The notes beneath the pieces are model-generated. The model was given only the letters and a program-made list of their open reading frames with translations, had not been told where the DNA came from and did not search any database. From Magnetospirillum sp. 64-120 (GTDB lineage Bacteria > Pseudomonadota > Alphaproteobacteria > Rhodospirillales > Magnetospirillaceae): DNA of 64,000 bases. Both the position numbers and the translations under genes were made by a program. Of the stretch, positions 7,185-49,337 are shown one piece after another. The stretch's first letter is position 1; the number at the start of each line of letters is the position of its first letter. The DNA lies in the NCBI RefSeq assembly GCF_001898825.1, contig NZ_MKVK01000051.1; one strand, written 5' to 3'.

Positions 7185-8173
7185 GCAAGGTCCTGATCAC
7201 CGGCGGCGCCGGCTTCATCGGTTTCCATCTGGCCACGGCGCTGGTCGCCGATGGTCATGCCGTCGACCTGCTTGACGACTTTTCCCGCGGTGTCGGCGAC
7301 GCCGAACTGAAGGCGTTGCTGGATCGCCCGTCGGTTCGCTGCCTGACCGTGGATCTGCGCGATCACGACAAGGTGGTGGCGCTGGATGACGATTACGACC
7401 ACATCTACCACCTGGCCGCCATCATCGGTGTCGCCCATGTGATGAGCCGTCCTTACGCGGTCCTGGCCGACAACGTGGCCATGCTGGCCAACGTCATCGA
7501 GTTGGCCCGCCGCCAAAAGCATCTGGCGCGTCTGCTGTTCACCTCGACCAGCGAGGTGATGGTGGGATCGCTGCAGCATCTGGACCTGCCGGTGCCAACG
7601 CCGGAAACCGCCGTGGTCGCCCTGCCCGACCTGGCCCATCCGCGCACCAGCTACATGCTGTCGAAGCTTTACGGCGAGGCCATGTGCCTGCAGTCTGGCC
7701 TGCCCGTCACCATCATCCGCCCACACAATTTCTATGGGCCGCGCATGGGCATGAGCCACGTGGTCCCCGAATTGCTGGCCAAGGCCCATGCCCTGCCGGC
7801 GGGCGGCGTGCTGCCGGTGGCCTCGGTCGAGCATCGCCGGGCGTTTTGCTATATCGACGACGCCGTCACCCTAATGCGGGCGTTGATGGACAAGCCAGCC
7901 GGCTTGGGCGGCGTCTTCAACATCGGCAACCAGGACCAGGAAATCAGCATCGGCGACTTGGCCCAGGTGCTGATCGACACCGTCGGCAAGGGCCTGTCCA
8001 TCCAGGCCGGGGAAGTGCACCCCGGATCGCCCAGCCGCCGTTGCCCCGACATGACCAAGACGGTGGCCGCCACCGGTTTGTCTCCGGTGGTCTCGCTGCA
8101 AGACGGCGTCGCCCGCACCTATGCCTGGTACCGGGCCAATGTCTTCGACGGAAAGGGACCCAGCGCCAAATGA
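7181..8173 (+). CDS. Extended-SDR NDP-sugar 4,6-dehydratase/epimerase (LegB/PseB-position enzyme)
   Basis: TTG start at 7181, in frame with tracked ORF 7061-8173, gives (M)SKVLITGGAGFIGFHLATAL. Motifs STSEV and YMLSK (YxxxK) are present. It lies directly upstream of, and overlapping, the aminotransferase (ATGA at 8170). Confidence 0.8.
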   Translation: MSKVLITGGAGFIGFHLATALVADGHAVDLLDDFSRGVGDAELKALLDRPSVRCLTVDLRDHDKVVALDDDYDHIYHLAAIIGVAHVMSRPYAVLADNVAMLANVIELARRQKHLARLLFTSTSEVMVGSLQHLDLPVPTPETAVVALPDLAHPRTSYMLSKLYGEAMCLQSGLPVTIIRPHNFYGPRMGMSHVVPELLAKAHALPAGGVLPVASVEHRRAFCYIDDAVTLMRALMDKPAGLGGVFNIGNQDQEISIGDLAQVLIDTVGKGLSIQAGEVHPGSPSRRCPDMTKTVAATGLSPVVSLQDGVARTYAWYRANVFDGKGPSAK

Positions 8174-9321
8174 TCCCCTTGGCCGTCCCCGACCTGTCGG
8201 GCAACGAAGCCCGCTATTTGCAGGAATGCGTCACCAGCACCTTCGTGTCGTCGGTGGGGCCGTTCGTCGATCGTTTCGAGACCATGGTCGCCCAGGCCGC
8301 CGGCGCCACCGGAGCCGTCGCCTGCGCCTCGGGCACCAGCGCGCTGCACGCCGCCTTGCTGGCGGTGGGGGTCGGACGCGACGATCTGGTCATCCTGCCC
8401 AGCTTCACCTTCATCGCCAGCGCCAACGCCGTTGCCCATTGCGGCGCCACGCCTTGGTTGTTCGACGTCGACGCGGCCAGCTGGACCCTGGACCCGGCTT
8501 TGGTCGCCGCCGAACTGGCCGCCCACTGCCACCGTGACGGCGACCGGGTGATCCACGGGCCGAGCGGACGCCGGGTCGCCGCCATGGTGCCCGTCCACGT
8601 CCTGGGCATGCCCGCCGACATGGACCCGCTGATCGAAGTGGCCCGCGCGTGGGGACTGAAAGTGGTGGCCGACGGCGCCGCCGCCCTTGGTGCAGCCTAC
8701 AAGGGCCGCCCCATCGGTCAACTGGGCGCCGATTTGACCATGGTGTCCTTCAACGGCAACAAGACGGTGACCGCCGGCGGCGGCGGCGCGGTGATCGGCA
8801 ACGACGCCGACCTGCTGAAGCTGGTCCGCCACCTGACCACCACCGCCCGGGTCGGCGCCGATTACGATCACGACCGCGTCGGCTATAACTACCGCATGAC
8901 CAATCTGCAGGCCGCCGTCGGCTGCGCCCAAATGGAACGGCTGGATCAATTGGTGGCGGCGAAGCGCCGTATCGCCGCCGGTTACGACGACGCCTTGGCC
9001 GACATCAAGGGAATCGGCCGTTTCCCGGTGCCCGATTACGCGCTTTCAGCCTGCTGGTTCTCGGGGGCCATCGTGCAGCCGCCCCTGCCGTCAGTGGCGG
9101 AAATCCGCCCCCGCTTGCGCCAGGCCGGCATCGACGCCCGTCCGTTCTGGAAACCCATGCATCTGCAGGCACCCTTCGCTGCCGCGCCGCGCACCAAGCA
9201 GGACGTGGCCGACGCGGTGTGGCCGACGGTGCTGACCCTGCCCTGTTCGACCCATCTGAGCGACGCCGAGCAAGCCCAGGTGATCGCCGCCTTGCGCTCG
9301 ATACTGGAAAATGCCCCATGA
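8170..9321 (+). CDS. DegT/DnrJ/EryC1-family PLP aminotransferase (LegC/PseC-like)
   Basis: In-frame ATG at 8170 gives MIPLAVPDLSGNEARYLQECV... Motifs ASGTSALHAALLA, VILPSFTFIASANA and the PLP-lysine region SFNGNKTVTAGGGG. The tracked 545-aa version (from 7684) is an overextension into the upstream gene. Confidence 0.9.
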   Translation: MIPLAVPDLSGNEARYLQECVTSTFVSSVGPFVDRFETMVAQAAGATGAVACASGTSALHAALLAVGVGRDDLVILPSFTFIASANAVAHCGATPWLFDVDAASWTLDPALVAAELAAHCHRDGDRVIHGPSGRRVAAMVPVHVLGMPADMDPLIEVARAWGLKVVADGAAALGAAYKGRPIGQLGADLTMVSFNGNKTVTAGGGGAVIGNDADLLKLVRHLTTTARVGADYDHDRVGYNYRMTNLQAAVGCAQMERLDQLVAAKRRIAAGYDDALADIKGIGRFPVPDYALSACWFSGAIVQPPLPSVAEIRPRLRQAGIDARPFWKPMHLQAPFAAAPRTKQDVADAVWPTVLTLPCSTHLSDAEQAQVIAALRSILENAP

Positions 9322-10499
9322 GCCGTCGCCGCATCTGCATCACCACCGGTTCCCGCGCCGAATATGGCCATATGCAATGGCTTGCCCGTGACATCGCCGA
9401 CGACACGGAGCTGGAACTGCAATTCATGGTCCTGGGCATGCATATGGCCCCCCAATACGGCATGACGGTGCGCGAGATCGAAGCGGACGGCTTTTTCGTC
9501 AACGAAAAGGTGGAAACCGCCCTGGCTTCGGACAGCCCGGTCTCCATCGCCAAGTCCATGGGCTTGGCGGTGTCCGGTTGTGCCGAGGCCTTGGCCCGGC
9601 TCCGCCCGGATGTCCTGGTGATCCTGGGCGACCGCTATGAAATGGTTTCGGCGGCGCTGGCGGCGTTGGTGCTGCGCATCCCCATCGCCCACATCCATGG
9701 CGGCGAAACCACCGAAGGGGCCTTCGACGAAGCGTTGCGCCATTCCATCACCAAGATGGCTCATTTGCACTTCACCGCCGCCGAGCCCTATCGCCGCCGT
9801 GTGATCCAATTGGGCGAGGCGCCCGAACGGGTGTTCAATTTCGGCGGTCCCGGTCTGGATACCTTGTTGCGCCAGAAGCTGATGACCATCCAGGAGCTGT
9901 CCGCCAGCACCGGTTTCGACCTGGACGGCGGTCCGTTGCTGTTGGTCACCTATCACCCCGTCACCTTGGCCGGCGGTGATCCTGCCGGAGGTATCGGCGC
10001 CCTGGTTGATGCCCTTGAGCGTTTCCCCGACACCCGCATCCTGATCACCGGGGTCAACGCCGACACCGGCAACAGCCGTATCACCACGGCCTTTCAAGCC
10101 CTGCGCCTGCGCCATCCGGCCAGAGTCTTCATGATCGACAGCCTGGGCCATCACCGTTATATCAGCGCCATGAGCCATGCTGCCGCCATGGTCGGCAATT
10201 CCTCGTCGGGCATCGGCGAGGCGCCGGCGTTGGGCCTGCCCACCGTCAATATCGGCGACCGTCAGAAAGGCCGCCTGCGAGCAGAGTCGATCATCGATTG
10301 TGCCGAAGACGCCGACGCCATCGCCACGGCATTGACCCAAGCGCTCAGCCCTGATTTCCGCCAAACCGCCCGTTCCTGTGAAGCCCCTTATGGTCGTGGC
10401 GGCGCCTCCTCGCGTATCAAAGACGTGCTGAAGACGGCTTCCTTGGACGGTATCTTGATGAAATCCTTTCACGATCTAGCGCCGGAGGTCATCCGGTGA
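9318..10499 (+). CDS. neuC: UDP/GDP-N-acetylglucosamine-type 2-epimerase (hydrolysing), NeuC/LegG family
   Basis: MSRRRICITTGSRAEYGHMQWL..., GDRYEMVSAALAA, IAHIHGGETTEGAFDE, VGNSSSGIGEAPALGLPTVNIGDRQKGR. ATGA overlap at 9318 and GTGA overlap at 10496. Confidence 0.9.
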   Translation: MSRRRICITTGSRAEYGHMQWLARDIADDTELELQFMVLGMHMAPQYGMTVREIEADGFFVNEKVETALASDSPVSIAKSMGLAVSGCAEALARLRPDVLVILGDRYEMVSAALAALVLRIPIAHIHGGETTEGAFDEALRHSITKMAHLHFTAAEPYRRRVIQLGEAPERVFNFGGPGLDTLLRQKLMTIQELSASTGFDLDGGPLLLVTYHPVTLAGGDPAGGIGALVDALERFPDTRILITGVNADTGNSRITTAFQALRLRHPARVFMIDSLGHHRYISAMSHAAAMVGNSSSGIGEAPALGLPTVNIGDRQKGRLRAESIIDCAEDADAIATALTQALSPDFRQTARSCEAPYGRGGASSRIKDVLKTASLDGILMKSFHDLAPEVIR

Positions 10500-11587
10500 A
10501 GGACTGGGCCAAAACCCTGGTCGCTCCCGAGACCACGATTCTGTCAGTGGTCCATGGCATCAACGAAGCCGATCTTCAGGTCGCACTGGTGGTGGACGAC
10601 CAGCGGCGATTGCTGGGCATCGTCACCGACGGCGACATTCGCCGCGCCATTCTCCGGCAGGTTTCTTTCGACAAACCGGTCAGCGAGATCATGAACCCGG
10701 CGCCCATCACCTGCCCGGCCGGTGAAAGCCGTGAACGGGTGCAGGCGACAATGACGGCCGCATCCTTGCGTTTCCTTCCGATGGTCGATGCCGAAGGCCG
10801 GGTCGTTTCCGTCTGTACCCTCGAAAATTTGCTGGCCTCGCCGCAACGGTCGAACACCGTGGTGTTAATGGCCGGCGGCATGGGTACCCGGCTGCGCCCG
10901 TTGACCAACGACATTCCCAAGCCGTTGTTGCGGGTAGGTGGCAAGCCGCTGCTGGAAATCATATTGGAAGGGTTCATCGCCCAGGGATTCCACAATTTTT
11001 ATCTGGCGGTCAATTACAAGGCCCAGATGATCAAGGACTACTTCCAGGATGGCGGCGCTTTCGGTGTTTCAATCCGCTACCTCGAGGAAAATCAGCGCCT
11101 GGGCACCTGCGGCGCCCTGACCTTGTTGCCCGAACGCCCGACCGAGTCGTTGATCGTGATGAATGGCGATCTGCTAACCACCGTAGATTTCGGCACCCTC
11201 TTGGACTTTCATGACGAGCACGGTGCGGTCGCCACCATGGCCGTTCGCGAATACGATTTCCAGGTTCCCTATGGTGTGGTGGAAACCGACGGTCATCGCA
11301 TCCTCAGGCTCGAAGAAAAACCGATACAACGTTTTTTCGTCAACGCTGGCATTTACGCCCTGTCGCCGCAAGTTCTGGATCGACTGGTGCCCGACCGTTA
11401 CATGGACATCACCGAATTGTTCCAGAACCTGTTGGACGACAACCACGAAACGGCCATGTTCCCCATACGCGAATACTGGCTGGACATCGGCCGTGTGGAC
11501 GATTTCGAACGGGCCAATCAGGAAGTCCACGACATCCTGGCTACCTCTCGTCGCCCCCAGGCTCAGAACGGCGGTGGGGAATGGTGA
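10496..11587 (+). CDS. CBS-pair + sugar-1-phosphate nucleotidyltransferase (PtmE-like)
   Basis: 363 aa. The N-terminal CBS pair includes LLGIVTDGDIRRAIL. It is followed by the NTP-transferase motif VVLMAGGMGTRLRPLTNDIPKPLL. This architecture matches the guanylyltransferase of the Campylobacter legionaminic acid locus. Confidence 0.85.
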   Translation: MKDWAKTLVAPETTILSVVHGINEADLQVALVVDDQRRLLGIVTDGDIRRAILRQVSFDKPVSEIMNPAPITCPAGESRERVQATMTAASLRFLPMVDAEGRVVSVCTLENLLASPQRSNTVVLMAGGMGTRLRPLTNDIPKPLLRVGGKPLLEIILEGFIAQGFHNFYLAVNYKAQMIKDYFQDGGAFGVSIRYLEENQRLGTCGALTLLPERPTESLIVMNGDLLTTVDFGTLLDFHDEHGAVATMAVREYDFQVPYGVVETDGHRILRLEEKPIQRFFVNAGIYALSPQVLDRLVPDRYMDITELFQNLLDDNHETAMFPIREYWLDIGRVDDFERANQEVHDILATSRRPQAQNGGGEW

Positions 11588-11627
11588 TGGCTGCCAATGA
11601 CTGCCGGGTGCACGTGAAGTCAACGCG

Positions 11628-12695
11628 ATGGTGCCGATGATCTTCTCCGTGGTCAGCCCCGACGATCCCGCCTGGACCGACGCCTTCATGCGCCTTAGTC
11701 CGACTGATCGTGATGTTTTTCACTCTCCGGCTTTCGCCCGGGCCACCCAGGCCACCTTGTACCGCCGCGACACCGTCCTGGCGGCCATCGGCGCGAAGGG
11801 TGAACAAAGGGTGCTGTACCCCTTTGTGCTGCGTGACCTTGAACGACTGACCGGTGCATGCGCGGCCCGGGGCTTGACCGACATGACCGGCCTTTACGGG
11901 CGCGGTGGCATCGCGCTGAGCTTGGATGGCGCCTCGCTGTTGCCGTCCTTTCATTCGGCCCTGAACGAATGGGCCCAAGGTGCCGGGGCCATCTGCACCT
12001 TTGATCGCTTCCACCCCGTCAGCGCCAACGAAGTCACGATAGCCCCGGGTGGGCGGGTCATCGATGTGGGGCTATTCGTGGTGATGGATTTGCGCGACGG
12101 TGCCGACGCCGCGCTGGCCCGCGCCAAGCCGGCCATCCGTCGGGCCATCCGCCGGGCCGAAAGCCTGGGCATCACCACCCGTCAGGTTCCCGCCGCGCAA
12201 GCCATCGATCCGTTCTTGGACCTTTATCACGAGACCATGGCCGCCAACGGCGCCGAGGATTTCTATTTCTTCGACCGCAGCTTTTTCCAAAGCCTGGCCG
12301 ACGCCTTGGGTGAAGGCGCCCAGTTTCATTTCGCCTTTGATGGCGACCAGCCGGTTTCCGCCGAACTTGTGCTGGCTGAAGGACGTTATTGCCATTACTT
12401 CCTAGGCGGCACCCGTCGCCAGGCCCTGGACAGCCGCGCCAACCAAAAGCTAAAATCCCACATCGTCGCCGATTGCGCCGCCCAGGGCCGGCACTTCTAT
12501 CTACTGGGCGGCGGCCACGACCCCGAGGATGGCTTAACCCGCTATAAACTGACCTTCGCCCCCGATGGCGGCTTACCGTCGAGGGTGGGCGGAACCATTT
12601 TCGATGCCGACGCCTACCAGAATCTGAAGGCGCGTTTGGCAGAAGACGGCACAGTCATCCGGCCCAACCGTTTCCAATTTTATGATCCGAACTAG
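11628..12695 (+). CDS. FemAB / Acetyltransf_6 (GNAT-fold) family acyl- or aminoacyl-transferase
   Basis: 355 aa. AIRRAIRRAESLGITTRQV..., YHETMAANGAEDFYFFDRSFF, AELVLAEGRYCHYFLGGT, LKSHIVADCAAQGRHFYLLGGG. This pattern is typical of FemAB-related GNAT proteins found in polysaccharide loci. Confidence 0.65.
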   Translation: MVPMIFSVVSPDDPAWTDAFMRLSPTDRDVFHSPAFARATQATLYRRDTVLAAIGAKGEQRVLYPFVLRDLERLTGACAARGLTDMTGLYGRGGIALSLDGASLLPSFHSALNEWAQGAGAICTFDRFHPVSANEVTIAPGGRVIDVGLFVVMDLRDGADAALARAKPAIRRAIRRAESLGITTRQVPAAQAIDPFLDLYHETMAANGAEDFYFFDRSFFQSLADALGEGAQFHFAFDGDQPVSAELVLAEGRYCHYFLGGTRRQALDSRANQKLKSHIVADCAAQGRHFYLLGGGHDPEDGLTRYKLTFAPDGGLPSRVGGTIFDADAYQNLKARLAEDGTVIRPNRFQFYDPN

Positions 12696-12704
12696 GGGGG
12701 AACC

Positions 12705-13397
12705 ATGGTTTCCGAAACCGCGATCGAGCAGAACCTGCGCCGCTGGGATGAACTGTTCCAGAGACGAAGCTGGGGCCGCTATCCCCCCGAGGAACTGATC
12801 CGATTCACGTCCCGCCGCTTCTCCCAGGTCGAGAACCGCCTTGCTGTTCGCATTCTCGAGATCGGGTGCGGCATGGGGGCCAATCTGTGGTTCTTCTCAC
12901 GTGAAGGCTTCTCGACCTATGGCATGGATTGTTCATCAACGGCCCTAGCCGAGGCTAAACGCCGGCTGGACGCCGAAAATCTGCCGATTGCAGAATTGGC
13001 GACCGGCAATTTCACCACTTTGCCCTGGCCTGACAACCATTTCGACATGGTCGCCGATATCGAGGCCGTGGTCGCTAACCCAACCGCCCAGGCACGGGCC
13101 ACCGTGGCCGAGGTGCTGCGGGTGCTACGCCCCGGCGGCGTGATGTTTTCCAAGCTGTTCGGGGTGCGGACCAATGGCTCCGGCACCGGCGAAATGGTTG
13201 AACCAGGCACCACCGCCAACCCCACCGAAGGCCCCTGCGCCGGTTTGGGCCTGACCCATTTCTATACCGAGGAAGACATCCGCGCCCTGTTCTCTGGCTT
13301 CGCCGAGGTTTCAGTGGACTACGTCGAACGTAGCGATGGCGGCGGTGCCGTACGTGTCCATGAGTGGGTGGTCGGCGCCACCAAGGCGACAGCATGA
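12705..13397 (+). CDS. Class I SAM-dependent methyltransferase
   Basis: 230 aa. Motif I is ILEIGCGMGANLWF, followed by DMVADIEAV and RPGGVMFSKLF. The stop overlaps the neuB-like start (ATGA at 13394). Confidence 0.85.
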   Translation: MVSETAIEQNLRRWDELFQRRSWGRYPPEELIRFTSRRFSQVENRLAVRILEIGCGMGANLWFFSREGFSTYGMDCSSTALAEAKRRLDAENLPIAELATGNFTTLPWPDNHFDMVADIEAVVANPTAQARATVAEVLRVLRPGGVMFSKLFGVRTNGSGTGEMVEPGTTANPTEGPCAGLGLTHFYTEEDIRALFSGFAEVSVDYVERSDGGGAVRVHEWVVGATKATA

Positions 13398-14449
13398 ACC
13401 GCGCCCTAACCGCCATCGCCAACCGGCCCATCGGGCCGGGGCACCCCTGTTTCGTCATCGCCGAGGCCGGAGTCAACCACAACGGCGACATGGACATGGC
13501 CTTGCGCCTGATCGACATCGCCGCCGATGCCGGCTGTGATGCCGTCAAGTTCCAGACCTTCATCACCGAAAAGGAAGTTTCTCCCTTCGCCCCCAAGGCC
13601 GATTACCAGATCGCCAACACCGGCGCCGACGAAAGCCAGTTGGAGATGCTCAAGGGCCTGGAACTGGACGAAGCGGCTCATCGGCGGCTGATGGAACATT
13701 GTGACCGTCGCGGCATCTTGTTCTTGTCCTCTCCCTTCGACATGGATTCGGTGGCGCTGCTGGGACGGCTTGAACTGGCCGCCATCAAGATTCCATCGGG
13801 CGAGATCACCAACATACCCTATCTACAGGCCATCGCCGCGCTGGGCCGTCCGATCATCCTGTCCACCGGCATGAGCACTTTGGCGGAAGTGGGTGAAGCA
13901 CTGGAACTTCTGCGTCGCGCCGGCGATCCCCCGGTGGCGCTCTTGCATTGCCTGTCGTGCTATCCCGCCGATCCGACCGAGGTCAATCTGCGGGCCATGG
14001 ATAGCATGGCCCACGCCTATCAAGTGACCGTCGGCTATTCCGACCACACTTTGGGAACCTCGGTGGCGGTCGCAGCGGTGGCGCGCGGCGCGGCCATCAT
14101 CGAAAAGCACATCACCCTGGATCACGACCTGCCAGGCCCGGACCATCGCGCCTCGCTGGAACCTGATGAATTGCAAAGCATGATGACGGCAATCCGGGTG
14201 GTCGAGCGCGCCTTGGGCGACGGTCTGAAACGGGTTCAGCCATCCGAGGCCAATACCCGCGATGTCGCCCGCAAAAGCGTGTGCACCAGCCGCGTCATCG
14301 CTGCCGGCCAGACCCTGCGCGACGACGATCTGATCATGCTGCGTCCCGGCACCGGCTTTCCCGCCCGCGACCTGCCCTTGTTGACGGGACGTCGATCCCG
14401 ACGCGACCTCCCTGCCGGATGGCCACTGACCGCCGAAGACTTGGAGTAG
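13394..14449 (+). CDS. neuB: Nonulosonic acid synthase, NeuB/LegI family (PEP-dependent), with C-terminal SAF domain
   Basis: In-frame ATG 13394 gives MNRALTAIANRPIGPGHPCFVIAEAGVNHNGDMDMALRLIDIAADAGCDAVKFQTF. Further motifs are IILSTGMSTLAEV, LLHCLSCYPADPTEVNLRAM, VGYSDHTLG, IIEKHITLD and the SAF-like tail RKSVCTSRVIAAGQTL. Confidence 0.92.
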   Translation: MNRALTAIANRPIGPGHPCFVIAEAGVNHNGDMDMALRLIDIAADAGCDAVKFQTFITEKEVSPFAPKADYQIANTGADESQLEMLKGLELDEAAHRRLMEHCDRRGILFLSSPFDMDSVALLGRLELAAIKIPSGEITNIPYLQAIAALGRPIILSTGMSTLAEVGEALELLRRAGDPPVALLHCLSCYPADPTEVNLRAMDSMAHAYQVTVGYSDHTLGTSVAVAAVARGAAIIEKHITLDHDLPGPDHRASLEPDELQSMMTAIRVVERALGDGLKRVQPSEANTRDVARKSVCTSRVIAAGQTLRDDDLIMLRPGTGFPARDLPLLTGRRSRRDLPAGWPLTAEDLE

Positions 14450-14455
14450 ACGTTA

Positions 14456-15661
14456 ATGCCGGGCCATGCTCTGATCTTGGTCAAAAACGCCATCAGCCCG
14501 CATGACCTGGAACGTCGGGGGATTAATGCGCTGACCGCCATGGGGTTCAGCGTCAACGTTCTCGATCTGGGCAATTTGCTGTCCCCCCAGATACAGCATA
14601 ACCGCAGTCATTATTCCAGCTTGGGGATTCCGATCACGGTGATTTCAAGCTGGCGGACCCTGCATCGGGCCTGGCCACTGTTTCAGCAGGCCGACCTGGC
14701 TTTTTGCTTTATCGCCACTCACCACATGCGCGCGGTAGATATTCCGCTATTTCGTCTTCTTGGACGCAGCCGTACGCCATACGTATTATTCATGAACAAT
14801 ACAGTGCCTGGAATTCTGCCCCATGAATGGCACCAGGGATGGTGGGGGCGCATGCGCGAACGGCTGAACAGGCTTAGGACGATTCGTCCACTGGACACCC
14901 TGGCCTCGCGCATTGCACCGGGCTGGGTCGGCGCGCCTCAAGCTGCCGCCGTGGTTTATGGTGGCGTGTCTTCCGTGGCTCCCAGCCAATTGGTCGGTCC
15001 CGACACCTTGCGCATCAATGCACACACCAACGATTACGACAGCTTGCGCACCCTGCGCGGCCAGCCGCTGGAAGACGACCACAGCGCCGTGTTCATCGAT
15101 CAGTACCTTCCTTTCCACCCTGATTGGGTGGAAAGGCCGGGCACCAACCGCATCGATCCTGATTCCTATTACACCAGCCTGCGTCGCCTGTTCGATCGCA
15201 TCGAGGCCGAATTGGGGCTAAGGGTCGTGATCGCCGCCCATCCCCGCGCCAATTACGCCGACAAGCCCGGCCTGTTCGGTGACCGTCTGGTTGCCAGCGG
15301 ACAAACCACCGAGTTGATACGCCGCAGTTCCCTGGTCATCGGCCATTACAGCTTGGCACTGGGGCAGGCGGTGATCTTCCACAAGCCGGTTCTATTGTTG
15401 CGTAGCGCCAGCTTTGGCGCCTCTTTGCTTTTGCTTGACCATATCACCGAGGCTTATGCCCGCGCATTGGGCACACAGCTAGAGAACATGGACACACCGC
15501 AAGCCATCCCACTGGCCGATCACACCAGCCCCAATGAACAAGCCTATGCTGGCTTTATCCACCAGTGGGTCAAACAGACGGGTAGCCCGGAAGCGCCTTT
15601 GCACGACATCGTCATCGCGGCGATGAGGCGGGCCGGACTGATCCCGGATCAGACGAAGTAA
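14456..15661 (+). CDS. Uncharacterised 401-aa protein; possible GT-B-like (capsule-synthesis / glycerophosphotransferase-like) sugar transferase
   Basis: No recognisable signature. The C-terminal half has VVIAAHPRANY...LVIGHYSLALGQAVIFHKPVLLL. This loosely resembles the HP...S/T-x-x-x-x-A...P pattern of KpsS/TagF-like GT-B proteins. The gene starts 7 nt after the neuB stop. GC is visibly lower than in the upstream operon. Confidence 0.6.
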   Translation: MPGHALILVKNAISPHDLERRGINALTAMGFSVNVLDLGNLLSPQIQHNRSHYSSLGIPITVISSWRTLHRAWPLFQQADLAFCFIATHHMRAVDIPLFRLLGRSRTPYVLFMNNTVPGILPHEWHQGWWGRMRERLNRLRTIRPLDTLASRIAPGWVGAPQAAAVVYGGVSSVAPSQLVGPDTLRINAHTNDYDSLRTLRGQPLEDDHSAVFIDQYLPFHPDWVERPGTNRIDPDSYYTSLRRLFDRIEAELGLRVVIAAHPRANYADKPGLFGDRLVASGQTTELIRRSSLVIGHYSLALGQAVIFHKPVLLLRSASFGASLLLLDHITEAYARALGTQLENMDTPQAIPLADHTSPNEQAYAGFIHQWVKQTGSPEAPLHDIVIAAMRRAGLIPDQTK

Positions 15662-16521
15662 CCGTATTTTTCCATCGGCAGACCATAAAGTTTTTGCAGC
15701 TTTCGGTTTCCGTATTCGTAGTCCCTTAGGACCTTGGCGGCGAATTCAGGCGACAAATCCATTCGCCGCCGCAATGCCTTGGCCGCCAGATCGGCCATCC
15801 CAAGCTTGCGCACCAGCGGTTTGAGGAACCCCAAAGACTGGGGATAGCGCGTCGCCTCGGCATGCGACTCGTTTACTTTTTTCTGGCTTTGGGCGAAGTG
15901 CCGCAGATCTTCACCCATGATGTCGCCAAGGCGCCGGAAATAGGTTTCCGGGTCGTCGCTTAATTCCTCAAGCAGCAATACATCAACCCGATCGGGACCC
16001 AAACGCTCGACAATGCGGAAAAAGTCCAGGGTCTCGAAATATATCATCCCGACCCGCTTGCGCAGTTTTACAGCGCCGGAACCCAAATTTTGAGCAGGAT
16101 AGTCAATAAAAATATCTTCGGGCCGATAAATGAAAGATGGCGCATTATGTTGAAAAATGCTTTGGACCATCAAATCTTGGCGCCGGATTTGCAAAAGAAA
16201 TCGGCCCTCTGTTTCAAATATGCGCCGCAAATTAGTCAAACAATTATGACGATGACTGTATTCAGTGAAGCGAATTTCAGGAGACATGACATAGTCGGAC
16301 AGCCCCTCATGGCTAAAGCAATATCGCTCGCCACGCTTTTGGAAAAAAACCAGATCCTGCGGTAGGTCGTCGAAGCTGTTTTTGGCCAGGATGTCCTCGG
16401 TGCCGTTATCCGCGACATAGGGCATGTTCTGGAGTTTGGGGAAAACGCGTTCCTGAAGAAACGTCGATCCGCATTTGGGTAAACCGATATGGATCACCGG
16501 ACCCCTATTCACACAGGACAT
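15649..16521 (-). CDS. Sulfotransferase-family protein (PAPS-dependent)
   Basis: 290 aa. The 5'-PSB-like motif is IHIGLPKCGSTFLQ and the 3'-PB-like motif is LLQIRRQDLMVQS. A GGAGAG SD lies 6 nt upstream of the ATG. The gene is markedly AT-rich (22/60 GC at 16081-16140). Confidence 0.75.
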   Translation of the reverse strand: MSCVNRGPVIHIGLPKCGSTFLQERVFPKLQNMPYVADNGTEDILAKNSFDDLPQDLVFFQKRGERYCFSHEGLSDYVMSPEIRFTEYSHRHNCLTNLRRIFETEGRFLLQIRRQDLMVQSIFQHNAPSFIYRPEDIFIDYPAQNLGSGAVKLRKRVGMIYFETLDFFRIVERLGPDRVDVLLLEELSDDPETYFRRLGDIMGEDLRHFAQSQKKVNESHAEATRYPQSLGFLKPLVRKLGMADLAAKALRRRMDLSPEFAAKVLRDYEYGNRKLQKLYGLPMEKYGYFV

Positions 16522-16622
16522 CTGAACTCTCCATATTGCCTAGTGGTCCGATCCTGACAGGAGGCTCATGGGCATGAACCTTCTGTCAGGCGAATCGGCC
16601 CACGAAATCAACGAATTATGCA

Positions 16623-16664
16623 CCAATCCATTCAGATGGTCTGTGTACCATCTGAATGGATTGG
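16623..16664. repeat. Perfect 18-bp inverted repeat (stem-loop) in the GT-C / sulfotransferase spacer
   Basis: ccaatccattcagatggt (16623-16640), 6-nt loop ctgtgt, accatctgaatggattgg (16647-16664). It extends to 22 bp with one mismatch. Flanking weaker hairpins are cctgacag/ctgtcagg (16553-16590) and cttgctt/aagcaag (16688-16708). Confidence 0.8.
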
Positions 16665-16800
16665 CGCACTAGTGGCCTGAGACGAAACTTGCTTTACAGC
16701 GAAGCAAGCAATGGCTTCAGCAGATTTTGGAATTGCAGCAACCATCCAACCAGGGCCAGAACCGCCCAAGACAAAGCCAACGCCACCCATTTTTTCCCGG

Positions 16801-26054: not shown

Positions 26055-26609
26055 ATGAAACTCCAAAGCGGTGTCCGCAAATACGCACCGTTCACCTTGG
26101 GGCACGCATTGCGCCGCTGGTGGACCTTGCGTGGTATCGGTGCGCGGGGAGACCGGGTCTATGTGGACAGGAATGTCCAACTGATGCGTCACCCGGAAAA
26201 GATCGCCCTCGGCAACAACGTGATGCTCAAGGAAGGGGTGCGGCTGTGCCCGACCAACCCTGACGCCTCCATCATTGTCGGCGACTGGACCACGCTGGGC
26301 TACCACTGCTTCCTGTTTGCCAGCACCCGTATCGAAATCGGCGCCAACTGCCTGATTGCGCCGTTCTGCTACTTCGTCGATTCCGACCACGGCATCGCCG
26401 CTGATAGCTTAATTCGCGAGCAAGACATGAACGCACGTCCCATTCGCATCGGTTCCGACGTGTGGCTGGGCACCGGCGTGGTCGTGACCAAAGGTGTTAC
26501 CATTGGCGATGGCGCTGTCATCGGCGCCCGCTCGGTGGTGACCGAGGACGTGGCCGCCGGTGCAGTAGTCGCCGGCGTTCCAGCCCGGTTCATCCGGTAC
26601 CGCCAATGA
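26055..26609 (+). CDS. Hexapeptide-repeat (LbH) acetyltransferase, WbbJ/LacA/WcaF-like
   Basis: In-frame ATG 26055 gives MKLQSG... Left-handed beta-helix repeats are IGANCLIAPFCYFVDSDHG, IRIGSDVWLGTGVVVTKGVTIGDGAVIGARSVV and AGAVVAGVPARFI. The tracked start (TTG 26007) lies inside the neuB-like repeat. Confidence 0.8.
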   Translation: MKLQSGVRKYAPFTLGHALRRWWTLRGIGARGDRVYVDRNVQLMRHPEKIALGNNVMLKEGVRLCPTNPDASIIVGDWTTLGYHCFLFASTRIEIGANCLIAPFCYFVDSDHGIAADSLIREQDMNARPIRIGSDVWLGTGVVVTKGVTIGDGAVIGARSVVTEDVAAGAVVAGVPARFIRYRQ

Positions 26610-27295
26610 AAATCGGCGCCGTGATCTTGGCCCGACTGGATTCCCGCCGCCTGCCCGGCAAGGCGCTGATCCAGGTTGCCGGCCGTCCACTGCTTGGCCA
26701 TGTCATCGACATCTGTCGGCACGTCGTCGGCCTGGACGCCATTGCCCTGGCCACCTCTGATCGCCCCGAAGACGATGTATTGGAAACCTTCGCTCACGCC
26801 GAAGGCATCGCTTGCGTGCGCGGGTCATTGGATGATGTGGCGGGCCGCTTCCTCACCGCCATGCGCCAGTTAAATCTAGACGGAGCATTGCGGCTGAACG
26901 GCGACAGCCCGCTCAACCGCCCTGCCCTACTTAGCCAGGCGGTCGAACGATTCCGACGAGGCGGATGGGATTTGGTGACCAACGTGGTCGGCCGCAGCTA
27001 TCCGTTTGGCGTCAGCGCCGAAGTCATTGGCTACGCGGCGATGGAACGGGCCTGTACGGCGATGCATATCCCCGAGCACCGTGAGCACGTCACCAAGGTG
27101 TTCTATGACAATCCCGAGCAGGTACGTATGGATGTGCTGCTCAATGTCGAACCGGGCATGAACGGAGTGCAGCTGGCTGTGGACGACCAAACCGACTTGG
27201 AGCGTTTCCGCTGGATTGCCGCCCGCCGACCCGATTTCATCACGGCGCCGTTGTCTGATCTGGTCGCCCTGGCCCGCACCTTCGAAATCGAGTAG
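26606..27295 (+). CDS. Cytidylyltransferase-family protein (SpsF/PseF-like)
   Basis: ATGA overlap at 26606 gives MKIGAVILARLDSRRLPGKALIQVAGRPLLGHVIDI... (the A-x-x-x-AR-x-x-S-x-RLPGK signature of SpsF-like nucleotidyltransferases). 229 aa. Confidence 0.8.
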   Translation: MKIGAVILARLDSRRLPGKALIQVAGRPLLGHVIDICRHVVGLDAIALATSDRPEDDVLETFAHAEGIACVRGSLDDVAGRFLTAMRQLNLDGALRLNGDSPLNRPALLSQAVERFRRGGWDLVTNVVGRSYPFGVSAEVIGYAAMERACTAMHIPEHREHVTKVFYDNPEQVRMDVLLNVEPGMNGVQLAVDDQTDLERFRWIAARRPDFITAPLSDLVALARTFEIE

Positions 27296-32741: not shown

Positions 32742-32832
32742 GACCGCCGTCACGTGTGATCAGCCGCGCAAGATGGGGTACAATCCGTTTCGCAGGTGCG
32801 AAGATCGTTCCGACACAAGTGGTGGCTTGACC

Positions 32833-33516
32833 ATGATCGATTCTCTTAGCGTGGTGGCGGTGATCACCGCCCGCGGCGGTTCCAAGGGATTGCCGCGCAA
32901 GAATGTGCTGCCCGCCGCCGGCAAGCCGCTGATTGCCTGGACCATCGAGGCAGCCCATCAGGCCATCCACGTGGATCGCACCATCTTGTCGTCGGATGAC
33001 GACGAAATCATCTCCGTCGCCCGTCAATGGGGCTGCGAGGTACCTTTCATCCGCCCCCCCGAACTGTCCGGCGACACCGCCCGCAGCGAGGACGCCGTCC
33101 TTGACGCCCTGGACCGCCTGGATCGCCCCTATGACGTGGTGGTGCTGCTGCAGCCCACGTCGCCGCAACGGCTGGCCGTCGACATTGATCAATGCCTGAA
33201 ACAGCTGGTGGACAGCGGGGCCCCGTCCTGCGTCAGCATCTGCCCGGTATCCAAGCCGCCGGAATGGATGTTTCGACTGGCCGCGGGCGGCGTGCTCTCC
33301 CCCATTCTGGGTGATGCCGGCCGTGGCAAGCGCCGCCAGGATCTGCCGCCCTGCTACACGGTGAACGGTGCCGTCTACGCCGCCCATGTCGACTGGCTGC
33401 GCCGGACCCGCTGTTTCTTCACCGACGAAACCGTGGGCAGCATCATGCCGGCGGAACGTTCGCTCGACATCGACACCGCCCAAGACCTCAGGATTTTCGA
33501 GGCGCTGCACCCATGA
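32833..33516 (+). CDS. neuA: Acylneuraminate (nonulosonate) cytidylyltransferase, NeuA/LegF family
   Basis: In-frame ATG 32833 gives MIDSLSVVAVITARGGSKGLPRKNVLPAAGKPLIAWTI... Further motifs are VVLLQPTSPQR, RRQDLPPCYTVNGAVY and SLDIDTAQDL. Confidence 0.9.
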   Translation: MIDSLSVVAVITARGGSKGLPRKNVLPAAGKPLIAWTIEAAHQAIHVDRTILSSDDDEIISVARQWGCEVPFIRPPELSGDTARSEDAVLDALDRLDRPYDVVVLLQPTSPQRLAVDIDQCLKQLVDSGAPSCVSICPVSKPPEWMFRLAAGGVLSPILGDAGRGKRRQDLPPCYTVNGAVYAAHVDWLRRTRCFFTDETVGSIMPAERSLDIDTAQDLRIFEALHP

Positions 33517-33707: not shown

Positions 33708-34465
33708 AACAACTTCGTGAACGTCTGGCCTCCGGCCTGCCCTGCGTCGGGGGGTGGCTGGGCACGTCGTCACCGTTGATCGCCGAGGCCATGGCCAGCT
33801 GCGGTTTTCATTGGGTCGCCGCCGACATGGAACACGGCCAGATCGGTGTCGCCGACCTACCCGCCTTGTTCGCCGCCTGCCAGTTGCGCGGTGCGGCACC
33901 GCTGGTCCGCCTGCCGGGCCACGACCCCATCCTGGCGCGGCGCTGTCTGGACGCAGGAGCCCTGGGACTGATTGTTCCGGTTGTGCAATCAGCTTCGGCC
34001 TTTGCCGATTTCGCCACCCATTGCCTGTATCCCCCCGCCGGCCGCCGCGGCGTGTCGCTGTGCCGGGCCAATGGCTGGGGCGACAGCTTCCAGGACTATC
34101 TGGGATTCCGCCCGCTGTTGGTGCCGCAAATCGAAACCGCCGCCGGTGCCGCCGCCGCCCAGGACATCGCCCGCCTCGACGTGGTGGACGCCCTGTTCCT
34201 GGGGCCTTACGACTTGTCCGCCGATCTGGGCCATCCCGGGGATTTCAATCATTCGGACGTGGTCGTCGCCATGGATCGGGTGCGTTCGGCCTGTCTTCAG
34301 GCCGGCAAGCCGTCCGGCATCCACCAGGTGGCGCCCGACCCGGCCCAGTTGCAGGCCCGCATCGCCGAAGGCTATCGCTTCGTCGCCTATTCCACCGACA
34401 TCGTCGCCCTAAGGGCGGCCTTGGGCAATCCCACAACCATCGTCGAGAGCGCATTATCGTCATGA
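33704..34465 (+). CDS. HpcH/HpaI-family class II (pyruvate) aldolase
   Basis: In-frame ATG 33704 gives MKQLRERLASGLPCVGGWLGTSSPLIAEAMASCGFHWVAADMEHG. Metal and substrate motifs are ADMEHG, LLVPQIETAAG and LFLGPYDLSADLG. Confidence 0.8.
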   Translation: MKQLRERLASGLPCVGGWLGTSSPLIAEAMASCGFHWVAADMEHGQIGVADLPALFAACQLRGAAPLVRLPGHDPILARRCLDAGALGLIVPVVQSASAFADFATHCLYPPAGRRGVSLCRANGWGDSFQDYLGFRPLLVPQIETAAGAAAAQDIARLDVVDALFLGPYDLSADLGHPGDFNHSDVVVAMDRVRSACLQAGKPSGIHQVAPDPAQLQARIAEGYRFVAYSTDIVALRAALGNPTTIVESALSS

Positions 34466-35229
34466 CCCGCCGCGTCTGTGTCATCCCGGCCCGCATGGGG
34501 TCCAGCCGGTTTCCCGGCAAGCCGCTGATTCCGCTGCTGGGACTGCCCCTGGTCATTCACGTGGCCCAGCGCTGCCGTCTTTATGGCGGCTTCGAACGGG
34601 TGATCCTGGCCACCTGCGACCAAGAAATCGTCGATGCCGCCCAGGCGCACGGATTCGAGGCGGTGATGACCTCGGACCGCCACGAACGCTGCACCGACCG
34701 GGTCGAAGAGGCGGTGGCCGCCCTTGACCTGGGTCTGGACGACGACGACGTGGTGGTGATGGTGCAGGGCGACGAGGTTCTGGTCAGCCCGCAGATGATC
34801 GCCGAGGTGGTCGAAGCCCTGGAAACCCGCCGCGAGCCGGTGGTCAACCTGGCCAGTCGGCTGTATCGGCCCCAGGACATGGAGGACATCAACGCCGTCA
34901 AGGTGGTCGCCGCCCCCGACGGGCGGGCGCTGTATTTCTCGCGCGCCGCCATCCCGTCGCGCGGCCGCGCCCCTGACGCGGCCTGCTATCAGCAGACCGG
35001 GGTGATGGCCTTCGCCCCCTCCTTCCTGGCCCGCTTCGCCCAATTGCCGCCGACGCCGTTGGAAATCATCGAATCCTGCGACATGTTGCGTCTGGTCGAA
35101 CACGGCCTGACCGTACGGATGATTTTCACGCAAACCGAAACGATCGGCATCGACACCCCCGCCGACCGTGACCGTGGCGAACAGATGCTGCGCGACGACC
35201 CCACCACCTCGCTTTATCTCAAGGTCTGA
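34462..35229 (+). CDS. KdsB-family cytidylyltransferase (CMP-ulosonic acid synthetase-like)
   Basis: ATGA overlap at 34462 gives MTRRVCVIPARMGSSRFPGKPLIPLLGLPLVIHV... Further motifs are VVVMVQGDEVLVSP, VKVVAAPDGRALYFSRAAIP and GIDTPADRD, which follow the KdsB layout. Confidence 0.8.
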   Translation: MTRRVCVIPARMGSSRFPGKPLIPLLGLPLVIHVAQRCRLYGGFERVILATCDQEIVDAAQAHGFEAVMTSDRHERCTDRVEEAVAALDLGLDDDDVVVMVQGDEVLVSPQMIAEVVEALETRREPVVNLASRLYRPQDMEDINAVKVVAAPDGRALYFSRAAIPSRGRAPDAACYQQTGVMAFAPSFLARFAQLPPTPLEIIESCDMLRLVEHGLTVRMIFTQTETIGIDTPADRDRGEQMLRDDPTTSLYLKV

Positions 35230-35230
35230 C

Positions 35231-36271
35231 ATGAACACGCTTAGGGTCGGTATCGCCGGCTATGGCATCGTCGGCAAACGGCGCCGCCACTTCATCGACG
35301 CCCATCCCGCCTTCACCACCGTGGCGGTGTGCGACCGCACCTTCACCAAAGAAGGGACCATGGCTGACGGCGTGCGCTATTATCGCGACTCCCATCGCCT
35401 GCTCGACGCCGAAAAGCTGGACGTGCTGTTCGTCTGCCTGACCAACGACGTCGCCGCCGAGGTCACCATGGCCGGCCTGCGCCAGGGACTACATGTCTTC
35501 TGCGAAAAGCCGCCGGGACGGGACGTCGCCGATATCCGCGCGGTCATCGACGTGGAAAGCCAACACCCTGGGCTGCGCCTGAAATACGGGTTCAACCACC
35601 GCTACCACGATTCGGTGCGCGACGCCCTGGCCCTGGTGCGCTCGGGCAACATGGGCGGCCTGATCGACATGAAGGGGGTCTATGGCAAGTCGGCCATCAT
35701 TTCCTTCGGCCAAAGCGATTGGCGGTCAAAGCGCGCCATCGCCGGCGGCGGCATCTTGCTGGACCAGGGCATTCACATGGTCGACCTGATGCGCCTGTTC
35801 GGTGGCGAGTTCGTCGACGTGCACGCCTTCGTCTCGAACCGCGCCTGGGGCCACGACATCGAAGACAACGCCTATGCGCTGATGCGCACCAAGGATGGCG
35901 CTGTCGCCATGCTGCATTCTTCCGCCACCCAGTGGCGTCACCGTTTCCAGTTGGACATCACCCTGGAAAAGGGGTCGCTGATCCTGTCGGGCATCCTGTC
36001 CGGGTCGAAAAGTTACGGGGCCGAAACGCTGACCGTGGCCTGGGCCTGCGACAATGGCGCCGGCGACCCGCGCGAACAGACCACCCGCTACAACAACGAT
36101 CCGTCCTGGGCCGACGAAATCGCTGATTTCGCCGATGCCATCGCCCGTGACCGCCCAATCAGCGAGGGGTCGTCCGACGACGCGCTGAAGACCATGGCCC
36201 TGGTCTACAAGATCTATTGCGCCGACCCGGAATGGAAACAGAAATGGGGGTTGCGGGATGCCGAAGGCTGA
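35231..36271 (+). CDS. Gfo/Idh/MocA-family NAD(P)-dependent oxidoreductase
   Basis: ATG 35231 gives MNTLRVGIAGYGIVGKRRRHFIDAHP..., with VFCEKPPGRD (the EKP motif). 346 aa. Confidence 0.85.
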   Translation: MNTLRVGIAGYGIVGKRRRHFIDAHPAFTTVAVCDRTFTKEGTMADGVRYYRDSHRLLDAEKLDVLFVCLTNDVAAEVTMAGLRQGLHVFCEKPPGRDVADIRAVIDVESQHPGLRLKYGFNHRYHDSVRDALALVRSGNMGGLIDMKGVYGKSAIISFGQSDWRSKRAIAGGGILLDQGIHMVDLMRLFGGEFVDVHAFVSNRAWGHDIEDNAYALMRTKDGAVAMLHSSATQWRHRFQLDITLEKGSLILSGILSGSKSYGAETLTVAWACDNGAGDPREQTTRYNNDPSWADEIADFADAIARDRPISEGSSDDALKTMALVYKIYCADPEWKQKWGLRDAEG

Positions 36272-36995
36272 ATCCGCGCCGCTGGCCGGCCGTTGCGCCG
36301 TGGTCACCGGCGGCACCCGCGGCATCGGCGCCGCCATCGCCCGTCATCTGCTGGCCGACGGTGCCGCCGTCACCGTGACCGGCACCAGTGCCGAGGGTGC
36401 GGCCCAGGCGCCCGAGGGCTGTGGCTATGTGGCCGCCGACTTCACCGATCCGCGCTCTCTTGACGAATGCGCCGCCCGGTTGACGGAACTGGCTCCCGAC
36501 ATCCTGATCAACAATGCCGGCATCAACAAGGTCGGCCCCTTCGCAGAGATTGACCCCGCTGATTTCACCCGCATCCAGGCGGTGAACGTCACCGCGCCGT
36601 TTCGCCTGATCCAGGCGGTTTTGCCGGCCATGAAGCAGCGCCAATGGGGACGTATCGTCACCATCAGCTCGATCTGGGGCAAAATCAGCAAGGAAGGCCG
36701 CGCCCCCTATTCAGCGTCGAAATTCGCCGTCGACGGCATGACCGCCGCCCTGTCGGCCGAGGTGGCGCAGTTCGGCATCCTGGCCAATTGCGTGGCACCC
36801 GGCTTCATCGACACGGAACTGACCCGTCGGGTCTTGGGCCAGGCCGGAATCGACGAGATGGCCGCAAAGGTCCCTGCCCGCCGCCTGGGACGGCCCGAAG
36901 AAGTGGCCGCCTTCGTCGCTTGGCTGGCCGGTCCGCAAAACACCTATGTCAGCGGCCAGAACATCGCCGTGGACGGAGGCTTCACCCGTGTCTGA
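36258..36995 (+). CDS. Classical short-chain dehydrogenase/reductase (SDR)
   Basis: 245 aa. AVVTGGTRGIGAAIA, NNAGI and the catalytic YSASK. It overlaps the upstream gene by 14 nt. Confidence 0.88.
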   Translation: MPKAESAPLAGRCAVVTGGTRGIGAAIARHLLADGAAVTVTGTSAEGAAQAPEGCGYVAADFTDPRSLDECAARLTELAPDILINNAGINKVGPFAEIDPADFTRIQAVNVTAPFRLIQAVLPAMKQRQWGRIVTISSIWGKISKEGRAPYSASKFAVDGMTAALSAEVAQFGILANCVAPGFIDTELTRRVLGQAGIDEMAAKVPARRLGRPEEVAAFVAWLAGPQNTYVSGQNIAVDGGFTRV

Positions 36996-38999: not shown

Positions 39000-39027
39000 T
39001 CGTCGCCGCGACAGGAGAAATACCGCC

Positions 39028-44679: not shown

Positions 44680-44759
44680 CCGCCACCCCGGCCAGCGCGA
44701 CAACACCGCACCGGCGACGGCCGACGCGAAAGCCAGCCGTGTCCCCGCCGTCAGCATCG

Positions 44760-46340: not shown

Positions 46341-46402
46341 GGGTTAACCTCTGGTGGGCAAGAAGATTTGCGCGGGTCTATAGCACAACCCACCGCCCAA
46401 GG

Positions 46403-47446: not shown

Positions 47447-47449
47447 GGA

Positions 47450-49332: not shown

Positions 49333-49337
49333 GTGGA

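Follow-up and report, generated by a model that had tools for sequence, protein, structure and literature searches.

In many bacteria and archaea, legionaminic and pseudaminic acids are found as decorations on lipopolysaccharides, capsules, S-layers and flagella. To our knowledge, only a few enzymes that attach these sugars have been described, namely Maf, FlmG, the TagB-like enzymes of Tannerella, and KpsS1. In a 2018 paper on archaeal N-glycans, the legionaminic acid transferase for protein glycosylation was described as still unidentified (PMC6137143). Here we analyse a gene from a stretch of 64,000 nucleotides of Magnetospirillum sp. 64-120 (contig NZ_MKVK01000051.1), the whole of which is called the window below. 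The gene occupies 14456..15661 on the + strand, begins with ATG and encodes 401 amino acids; it lies directly behind a neuB-like gene on the same strand, just as the original prediction had described it. We think it rather probable that its product is a cytoplasmic transferase for a legionaminate-type sugar activated with cytidine monophosphate (CMP), belonging to a new sequence family whose acceptor varies between organisms.

Several groups of glycosyltransferases (GTs) with the GT-B fold offer themselves for comparison. Those that transfer ulosonic acids from CMP carry a (K/R)XHP motif, the proline of which stacks on the cytosine, and a QXXXD motif that combines a catalytic (nucleophilic) aspartate with a carboxylate-binding glutamine (PMC12887879). 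Families GT99, GT107 and GT140 mutually share “negligible sequence similarity”, and KrkA itself has a serine at the K/R position (PMC12887879). The inverting sialyltransferases are defined by D/E-D/E-G and HP motifs (Freiberger et al. 2007, cited in PMC5420450). The Tannerella forsythia proteins Tanf_01245 and TFUB4_00887 (BFO_1060 family, TagB-like GT-B) are soluble, comprise ~440 amino acids, and transfer derivatives of pseudaminic (Pse) or legionaminic (Leg) acid (PMC5420450).

An AlphaFold2 model of the Magnetospirillum protein, calculated with the family alignment, has a mean predicted local distance difference test (pLDDT) score of 93.9 and a predicted template modelling (pTM) score of 0.91. 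It consists of two Rossmann-like domains with seven and six β-strands (residues ~1–200 and ~201–401), completed by C-terminal helices. A Foldseek search of the PDB with this model returned 250 matches at E ≤ 1e-3, mostly GT-B enzymes, and these include GT1 enzymes (GtfA, 4e-10; YojK), UDP-GlcNAc 2-epimerases (UDP, uridine diphosphate), MurG and a polysialyltransferase (PDB code 5wcn; E = 1.5e-6, rank 50). No match has a template modelling (TM) score above ~0.56, and the top scores (0.54–0.56) were obtained for UDP-GlcNAc 2-epimerases. When the C-terminal domain was modelled alone (pLDDT 93.6), the matches became weaker but were still generically GT-B (GtfA at 1.8e-4, 2-epimerases, KpsC at 1.3e-3). 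Model and Foldseek matches thus agree on the two Rossmann-like domains of the GT-B superfamily. As modelled, the fold is GT-B and the family is an outlier within it. No membrane segment is predicted, the most hydrophobic 19-residue stretch holding only 12 hydrophobic residues.

The model and an alignment of 191 family proteins, from which all residue frequencies were taken, define the following features:

14456..15055, + strand: N-terminal Rossmann-like domain (residues ~1–200), presumed acceptor side, from AlphaFold2 secondary structure and conservation
15023..15040, + strand: H190-x-x-D193-Y-(D/E)195 at the end of the N-terminal domain, from residue frequencies
15056..15661, + strand: C-terminal Rossmann-like domain (residues ~201–401), presumed nucleotide-sugar donor side, from AlphaFold2 secondary structure and conservation
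15086..15103, + strand: A-V-F-I-D215-Q, closing the first C-terminal-domain strand, from the alignment
15239..15247, + strand: H262-P263-R264 right after the second strand of the C-terminal domain, from the alignment
15350..15355, + strand: S299 and L300 (mostly threonine in the family) after the fourth strand of the C-terminal domain, at a helix N-terminus, from the alignment and secondary structure

Near-invariant positions are R20, G30, H190, D193, D215, E250, P263, R277, S299, P311, Y364 and W383, the last of which is a histidine in the window protein. They are spread unevenly. The N-terminal domain is weakly conserved, with six positions at ≥90% identity (R20, G30, H190 and D193 among them), while residues 201–320 form the best conserved core, with 16 such positions. 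This distribution, a conserved C-terminal core beside a variable N-terminal domain, points to a donor that is shared by the family and to acceptors that differ. Within the core, D215 is present in 190 of the 191 members (99%); it is followed by glutamine or glutamate, and the fourth position before it is alanine in 172. P263 is equally constant (190/191, 99%), R264 is kept in 86% and H262 in 79%. S299 occurs in 186 proteins (97%) and is replaced by threonine in the other five; position 300 is threonine in 140. With A305 at 93% and P311 at 98%, the HP...(S/T)xxxxA...P pattern that had been noticed in the single sequence is real and conserved across the family. At the end of the N-terminal domain, H190 reaches 94%, D193 98% and Y194 86%, and an acidic residue (D or E) stands at position 195 in 180 of the 191.

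In the model, H262-P263-R264 would be topologically equivalent to the CMP-binding HP motif, and S299 with residue 300 may occupy the usual phosphate-binding position of GT-B enzymes. The layout of D215, P263 and S299 as modelled resembles that of CMP-sugar sialyl- and Kdo (3-deoxy-D-manno-octulosonate) transferases. H190 and D193 are a candidate acid/base pair that would face the cleft between the domains.

The genomic surroundings of the family carry the second part of the argument. In metagenome contexts of homologs, a NeuB gene and a cytidylyltransferase gene of the CTP_transf_3 family were found within 10 kb in 8 of 8 cases, usually with PtmE, DegT and dehydratase genes. Species-representative genomes were scanned with a nine-sequence sub-alignment, and neighbours were recorded within ±10 kb. 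The scan gave 65 loci that span about ten phyla, archaea included: Rhodospirillales, Desulfovibrionaceae, Actinomycetota, Nitrospirae, Elusimicrobia, Omnitrophota, Bacteroidota, Firmicutes and three archaeal lineages. A CMP-type cytidylyltransferase accompanies the family in 52 of these loci, NeuB in 45, PtmE and DegT in 37 each and NeuC in 32, counted on contigs many of which end early. Some loci, such as L046 and L063, have no nonulosonate genes close by. Unbiased clustering of all open reading frames (ORFs) over 69 loci returned the same pathway. Its recurrent partners are NeuB (48/69 loci), a LegB-type dehydratase (46/69), the CMP-synthetase (44/69), DegT and PtmE (42/69 each), NeuC (34/69), a PglD-like acetyltransferase (26/69), the WbuX amidotransferase (18/69) and a PtmA-like short-chain dehydrogenase/reductase (SDR; 18/69), and every one of them has a part in the synthesis or tailoring of the nonulosonate. 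Among acceptor-side genes (Maf, GT2/GT4, Wzy or ABC exporter; ABC, ATP-binding cassette), none recurred consistently over the 69 loci.

The commonest immediate upstream neighbour of the family is the CMP-synthetase gene, and in other genomes the gene sits inside the legionaminic-acid operon and not at its end. Sialyltransferase genes are likewise commonly embedded in neu operons, as with neuS of E. coli K1, siaD of Neisseria and cst of Campylobacter. The association with neuB and CMP-cytidylyltransferase genes, for which the original prediction had proposed a check across genomes, is strongly positive, in all eight metagenome contexts and in most of the 65 loci. NeuC is found alongside the family in ~70% of the NeuB-positive loci and also in the window; a role as a replacement of NeuC/LegG was considered and rejected, as both co-occur.

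In the window, the genes that precede the one under study on the same strand are the following, assigned from Pfam and NCBIfam models:

7190-8173, + strand: 4,6-dehydratase
8170-9321, + strand: DegT aminotransferase
9315-10499, + strand: NeuC-type hydrolysing 2-epimerase (TIGR03568, 449 bits)
10496-11587, + strand: PtmE-like CBS-nucleotidyltransferase
11628-12695, + strand: FemAB-family protein (GNAT)
12705-13397, + strand: methyltransferase dependent on S-adenosylmethionine (SAM)
13394-14449, + strand: NeuB-type synthase

Judged by the families it encodes, this operon (7190..14449) is a legionaminic-acid-type nonulosonate pathway that starts from a sugar activated with guanosine diphosphate (GDP), and its product is probably an unusual N-acyl derivative. 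The FemAB-family protein and the methyltransferase occupy the spot where a PglD-type N-acetyltransferase would be expected, which suggests that the N-acyl group of the sugar is aminoacyl or of another unusual kind and possibly methylated. Three CTP_transf_3 genes lie farther downstream:

26462-27295, + strand: CTP_transf_3 gene (Pfam)
32773-33516, + strand: candidate CMP-nonulosonate synthetase (CTP_transf_3, Pfam), which clusters with the cytidylyltransferases of 44 loci of the family
33754-35229, + strand: CTP_transf_3 gene (Pfam) for a protein of 491 amino acids with an unassigned N-terminal extension of ~240 residues

A second cytidylyltransferase, KdsB-like, is present in related loci. 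Together with the three genes of the window it suggests that more than one CMP-activated sugar is made.

Sequence searches place the protein in no described family. It matched nothing in Pfam, NCBIfam or PHROGs at thresholds of E ≤ 0.1 to 1, and the PDB sequences, searched with the single protein and with a profile of 44 family sequences, gave chance-level matches only. When the 44 aligned members were compared with Pfam and NCBIfam, scattered matches appeared at E ≥ 0.008 and pointed to no consistent family. The statement that the protein could not be assigned from its sequence has thus been borne out, as has the notion of an undescribed family, which is unnamed in every library searched. The family is large. 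When its profile was run against 1.84 billion representatives, 4,705 representative clusters (50% identity level) matched at E ≤ 1e-3, 2,870 of them at E ≤ 1e-30. Nearly all members are single-domain proteins of ~400 residues, and every publicly named one is labelled “hypothetical protein”. The best 150 of the 4,705 profile matches are all strong members of the family. The family is GT-B glycosyltransferase-like, lies outside existing models and probably uses a CMP-nonulosonate.

One multi-domain member was seen among the best 150 matches. In this metagenomic protein of 714 residues (P0067), the family domain (residues 3–384) is fused to a C-terminal SAM-dependent methyltransferase (Methyltransf_23, 3.7e-17). 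Another member (P0004), alone among ~60, carries a precomputed Pfam label, PF27859.1, which was not matched to any family description; a very recent Pfam entry may thus cover part of the family. Kinship with the two other large unassigned proteins of the window was rejected on hhalign probabilities of 5% and 0.3%.

Taken as a mechanism, our reading would run as follows. A soluble cytoplasmic GT-B enzyme would transfer the CMP-activated legionaminic-type nonulosonate made by the surrounding genes to a glycan or a lipid-linked acceptor. The CMP-sugar would be bound by the C-terminal Rossmann domain, where P263, with H262 and R264, would contact the cytidine, and S299 and the next residue, at the helix N-terminus, the phosphate. 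The conserved arginines R264 and R277, joined by R20 and R152 of the N-terminal domain, could contact the phosphate and the C1 carboxylate. D215, possibly with H190 and D193, might act as the general base of an inverting reaction, as in GT52-type sialyltransferases; alternatively it might be the nucleophile of a retaining one, as in KpsC, WbbB and KrkA. Recognition of the organism-specific acceptor would fall to the variable N-terminal domain. Both assignments, of a CMP-legionaminic-type sugar as the donor and of the N-terminal domain as the reader of acceptors, are suggested by the conservation of the donor-side domain and by the fact that the pathway is the only content shared by the loci.

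A bolder version, which we consider possible if doubtful, holds that this is the main non-flagellar legionaminic-acid transferase family, a new GT family in the sense of CAZy, with D215 as the covalent nucleophile of a retaining double displacement. If true, it would extend the D215-type nucleophile mechanism of KpsC, WbbB and KrkA from Kdo to nine-carbon diamino sugars, and it would imply that the HP motif has degenerated to the point where the proline alone is essential. A GT-B family that spans phyla and occurs almost exclusively with the legionaminic-acid pathway would be a directly testable candidate for the missing transfer step. Thousands of glycan-locus products now labelled “hypothetical protein” would be better annotated, and a new enzyme scaffold would become available for making Leg-glycosides chemoenzymatically. 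Both the fold and the overall logic are familiar; the function is a prediction.

How the family compares with the described transferases can be stated group by group. With the retaining enzymes KpsC/KpsS (GT107), WbbB (GT99), KrkA (GT140) and the Acinetobacter pseudaminyltransferase KpsS1 it shares the GT-B fold and an invariant aspartate that ends the first strand of the C-terminal domain. As in these enzymes, an HP dipeptide follows the next strand, and the donor-side domain is conserved while the rest is variable. Unlike their QXXXD motif, the A211-V-F-I-D215-Q segment has no glutamine at the fourth position before the aspartate. In A260-A261-H262-P263-R264, which corresponds to their (K/R)XHP, the K/R position is alanine, with the proline and the histidine conserved to the extent given above. 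The spacing from aspartate to proline is 48 residues, as against about 35 in the retaining ulosonic-acid transferases. KpsC itself was found by Foldseek with the model of the C-terminal domain (PDB code 8fuw) at E = 1.3e-3 and TM 0.36–0.43, no better than GT1 enzymes or epimerases, and the Capsule_synth model (PF05159) matched 1 of the 44 members at E = 0.12. The resemblance to KpsS/TagF-type proteins that had been read from the HP pattern is therefore not specific. KpsC at about 1e-3 stands among GT1 enzymes and 2-epimerases, Capsule_synth is confined to that single match, and the motifs of these families are absent as written.

The inverting GT38 polysialyltransferase, GT52 Lst/NST and GT80 PmST1 also have the GT-B fold, an HP motif and a donor-side serine or threonine at a helix N-terminus, and their genes too are embedded in nonulosonate synthesis operons. 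In contrast to these enzymes, the family has no conserved D/E-D/E-G, the nearest segment being D193-Y-(D/E)195, the histidine of its HP is variable, and none of their Pfam models matches. The Tannerella enzymes resemble it in being encoded directly downstream of the CMP-Pse/CMP-Leg locus and in combining a conserved C-terminal half that contains HP with a divergent N-terminal half (PMC5420450). Their model NF046086 (BFO_1060_trans), however, matched only 1 of the 44 members at E = 0.11, PF04464 (Glyphos_transf/TagB) did not match, and the family has no conserved DXD. Maf (MptE-like) and FlmG use CMP-Pse or CMP-Leg and are encoded beside the same biosynthetic genes. Maf nevertheless belongs to a different fold family (PF01973), for which the protein gave no match, and is not a recurrent neighbour; FlmG has an N-terminal flagellin-binding tetratricopeptide repeat (TPR) domain, whereas the 401 residues here are filled by two GT-B domains without TPR.

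A further comparison is with TIGR04326 (O_ant_LIC13510), an uncharacterised “surface carbohydrate biosynthesis protein” family that occurs in the same type of loci and in several cases shares contigs with the family. The TIGR04326 model matched 1 of the 44 members at 0.069 and TIGR04331 2 of the 44 at E ≥ 0.043. Unlike the family, TIGR04326-like proteins have ~530 residues and other conserved residues, and kinship with the TIGR04326-like protein of the window was rejected on an hhalign probability of 2%. For the UDP-GlcNAc 2-epimerase, NeuC and PseG enzymes, finally, the likeness is one of fold (TM 0.5–0.56), and there was no match to Epimerase_2 (PF02350), TIGR03568 or the PseG models. By analogy, the protein would work most like the CMP-sugar GT-B transferases, although the sequence and motif signatures of each of these families are missing from it.

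A number of observations weigh against a CMP-legionaminate transferase. In the libraries searched, no sequence or profile link leads from the family to a characterised CMP-sugar transferase. Structurally, the closest matches are generic GT-B enzymes with TM about 0.5, and neither the polysialyltransferase nor KpsC outranks the UDP/TDP-dependent GT1 enzymes (TDP, thymidine diphosphate) or 2-epimerases among them. QXXXD and D/E-D/E-G do not occur as written in the family, and 21% of its members have N, C, S or M in place of H262. The histidine of HP is important in sialyltransferases. The roles proposed for individual residues derive from topology in the model, and glycosyl transfer as such is predicted from the fold. 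In one locus (L003), where a complete legionaminic-acid operon also encodes a Maf protein, the gene stands between legC-like and legG-like genes, an arrangement that would equally suit an extra biosynthetic step. Of the proposal that the protein is a nonulosonate transferase, the GT-B fold, the unnamed family and the co-occurrence have stood, and the donor and the transfer step continue to be predictions.

These observations open the way to other explanations. The protein could be a GT-B transferase for another donor (a UDP-, GDP- or TDP-sugar) that builds the acceptor sugar of the nonulosonate or adds onto the nonulosonate, so that the steps are coupled. That the top Foldseek matches are GT1 enzymes acting on nucleoside diphosphate (NDP) sugars (GtfA, YojK) would suit such a role, as would the loosely kept histidine of HP and the departures from the sialyl and Kdo motifs; other possible nonulosonate transferases also exist in the window and in related loci (TIGR04326-like proteins, and Maf in L003). 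We nonetheless regard this explanation as unlikely. The partners kept across phyla serve nonulosonate synthesis only and no second sugar pathway recurs, the commonest immediate neighbour makes a CMP-sugar, and since conservation lies in the donor-side half, it is the donor that should be shared. A Gly-rich diphosphate loop and an EX7E-type motif are typical of NDP-sugar GT-B enzymes, and neither is found among the conserved positions of the family. Alternatively, the protein might be no transferase at all but a GT-B enzyme of precursor supply or tailoring, for instance a hydrolase, epimerase or phosphorylase in the manner of PseG and NeuC, and then an eighth “core” gene of a GDP-GlcNAc-dependent pathway. 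The TM-scores of the UDP-GlcNAc 2-epimerases (0.54–0.56), the frequent position amid biosynthetic genes (in the order PtmE, CMP-synthetase, the family, LegB), the co-occurrence of PtmE in 42 of 69 loci and the presence of the gene even beside a Maf transferase (L003) would fit this idea. We judge it distinctly unlikely all the same. The known steps of the CMP-Leg pathway are covered by other families, most of which adjoin the gene, and Schoenhofen et al. reportedly assigned all ten steps of the Campylobacter pathway in 2009. NeuC, moreover, coexists with the family in most NeuB-positive loci, and neither Epimerase_2 nor PseG was matched. A single small substrate should also conserve both walls of the cleft, whereas the N-terminal domain is highly variable.

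A transferase for CMP-legionaminate could also take the special form of a lipid-carrier priming enzyme, which would, on the cytoplasmic face, load undecaprenyl phosphate or a lipid-linked glycan with the nonulosonate of the CMP-sugar, for export by the adjacent MsbA-type ABC transporter and a periplasmic GT-C step. In favour of this form, an ABC exporter and a PMT_2/GT-C-like protein are encoded in a convergent operon of the window, and the same trio occurs in three further loci (L001, L018 and L022). Across the family, however, ABC genes were found in 7–9 and GT-C genes in 2 of the 65–69 loci; such partners are so few that priming is not the family's general role, and no element for membrane association is predicted. 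We consider this form very unlikely, and keep to a cytoplasmic CMP-legionaminate-type transferase whose acceptor differs from organism to organism.

The neuB-like gene (13394-14449) encodes a NeuB-family synthase (Pfam NeuB, 2.4e-94; TIGR03569, 444 bits, cutoff 399.65). Its TAG stop at 14447-14449 is followed by the six nucleotides ACGTTA and then by the ATG at 14456. The proposed start agrees with the N-termini of aligned homologs, of which 59 are full-length, with 25–52% identity. One further feature lies at this junction:

14443..14446, + strand: GGAG resembling a Shine-Dalgarno sequence, 9 nt upstream of the ATG and inside the last neuB codons

The position of GGAG within the end of neuB suggests translational coupling to, and co-transcription with, that gene. 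No promoter-like or terminator-like site was found in the stretch between neuB and the gene, so that co-transcription is the simplest reading, and the gene is probably co-transcribed with neuB in the window. The 59 homologs, the 4,705 clusters, the confident fold and a GC content at third codon positions (GC3) of 0.69 indicate a real gene and not a chance ORF.

A drop in composition had been taken to suggest that the gene was acquired independently of the upstream operon. The drop proved marginal: its GC content is 0.589, compared with 0.634 for neuB and 0.584 for the PtmE-like gene within the operon, and the sharp fall, to 0.503, is that of the following gene, which lies on the opposite strand. 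The argument from composition for an acquisition of this gene alone is weak and was rejected; elsewhere the gene is embedded in the operon. The stretch from 14 to 33 kb as a whole is somewhat poorer in GC than its flanks, and lowered GC is common for variable glycan loci. The nearest named relatives of the protein and of its neighbours are from Magnetospirillum, Paramagnetospirillum and Phaeospirillum, at 35–50% identity. A search of a plasmid collection gave zero matches, and the exact sequence was found only in DNA metagenome runs, from wastewater, bioreactors and soil. Judged by these relatives and runs, the host probably belongs to the uncultured Rhodospirillales.

Behind the gene, on the opposite strand, the convergent operon (15649..24654, − strand; Pfam and NCBIfam assignments) comprises:

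15649-16521, − strand: ORF for a protein of 290 amino acids
16801-18759, − strand: GT-C-like membrane protein (PMT_2, Pfam, 27 bits)
18809-20407, − strand: TIGR04326-like protein of 532 amino acids (a weak partial match, 46 bits against a cutoff of 250)
20404-22446, − strand: MsbA-type fused ABC exporter
22828-24654, − strand: protein of 608 amino acids

This operon may supply export and a periplasmic step and may be linked in function to the gene under study. For this window we hypothesise a product that may be built up on a lipid carrier, then exported, and passed on in the periplasm. The pairing of ABC and GT-C-like genes, which here flank the TIGR04326-like gene and also stand beside the family in L001, L018 and L022, hints at a lipid-linked glycan that is exported by the ABC protein and transferred periplasmically.

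The 290-residue ORF overlaps the 3′ end of the gene under study by 13 nt with its own 3′ end and is the regional GC minimum (0.503, GC3 0.58). It gave zero matches in Pfam, NCBIfam, PHROG and the PDB; its N-terminus (IHIGLPKCGSTFLQ) looks by eye like the loop of sulfotransferases that binds 3′-phosphoadenosine-5′-phosphosulfate, which is our assumption and was confirmed by no tool. For the 532-residue protein at least 441 homologs were found, almost none of them with a name; it has many invariant tryptophans, histidines and prolines and a second “HP” at H422-P423. Its family appears to share contigs with the one studied here in several genomes (for example P0303 with P0016, P0235 with P0005, and L017), and it is possibly one more uncharacterised enzyme that belongs to nonulosonate loci. 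The 608-residue protein matched no family and has a GC content of 0.548; its relatives lie within 10 kb of the family in ~4–6 loci.

Farther downstream, at 36258-54618, the glycan locus runs on for at least 20 kb with genes for an SDR, a 3-dehydroquinate-synthase-like protein, a 2-hydroxyacid dehydrogenase and a heparinase II/III-like protein. In essence, the window as a whole is a single, very large region for surface carbohydrates. The part at 36258-54618 also encodes two asparagine-synthase-like amidotransferases, one GT2 and two GT4 enzymes.

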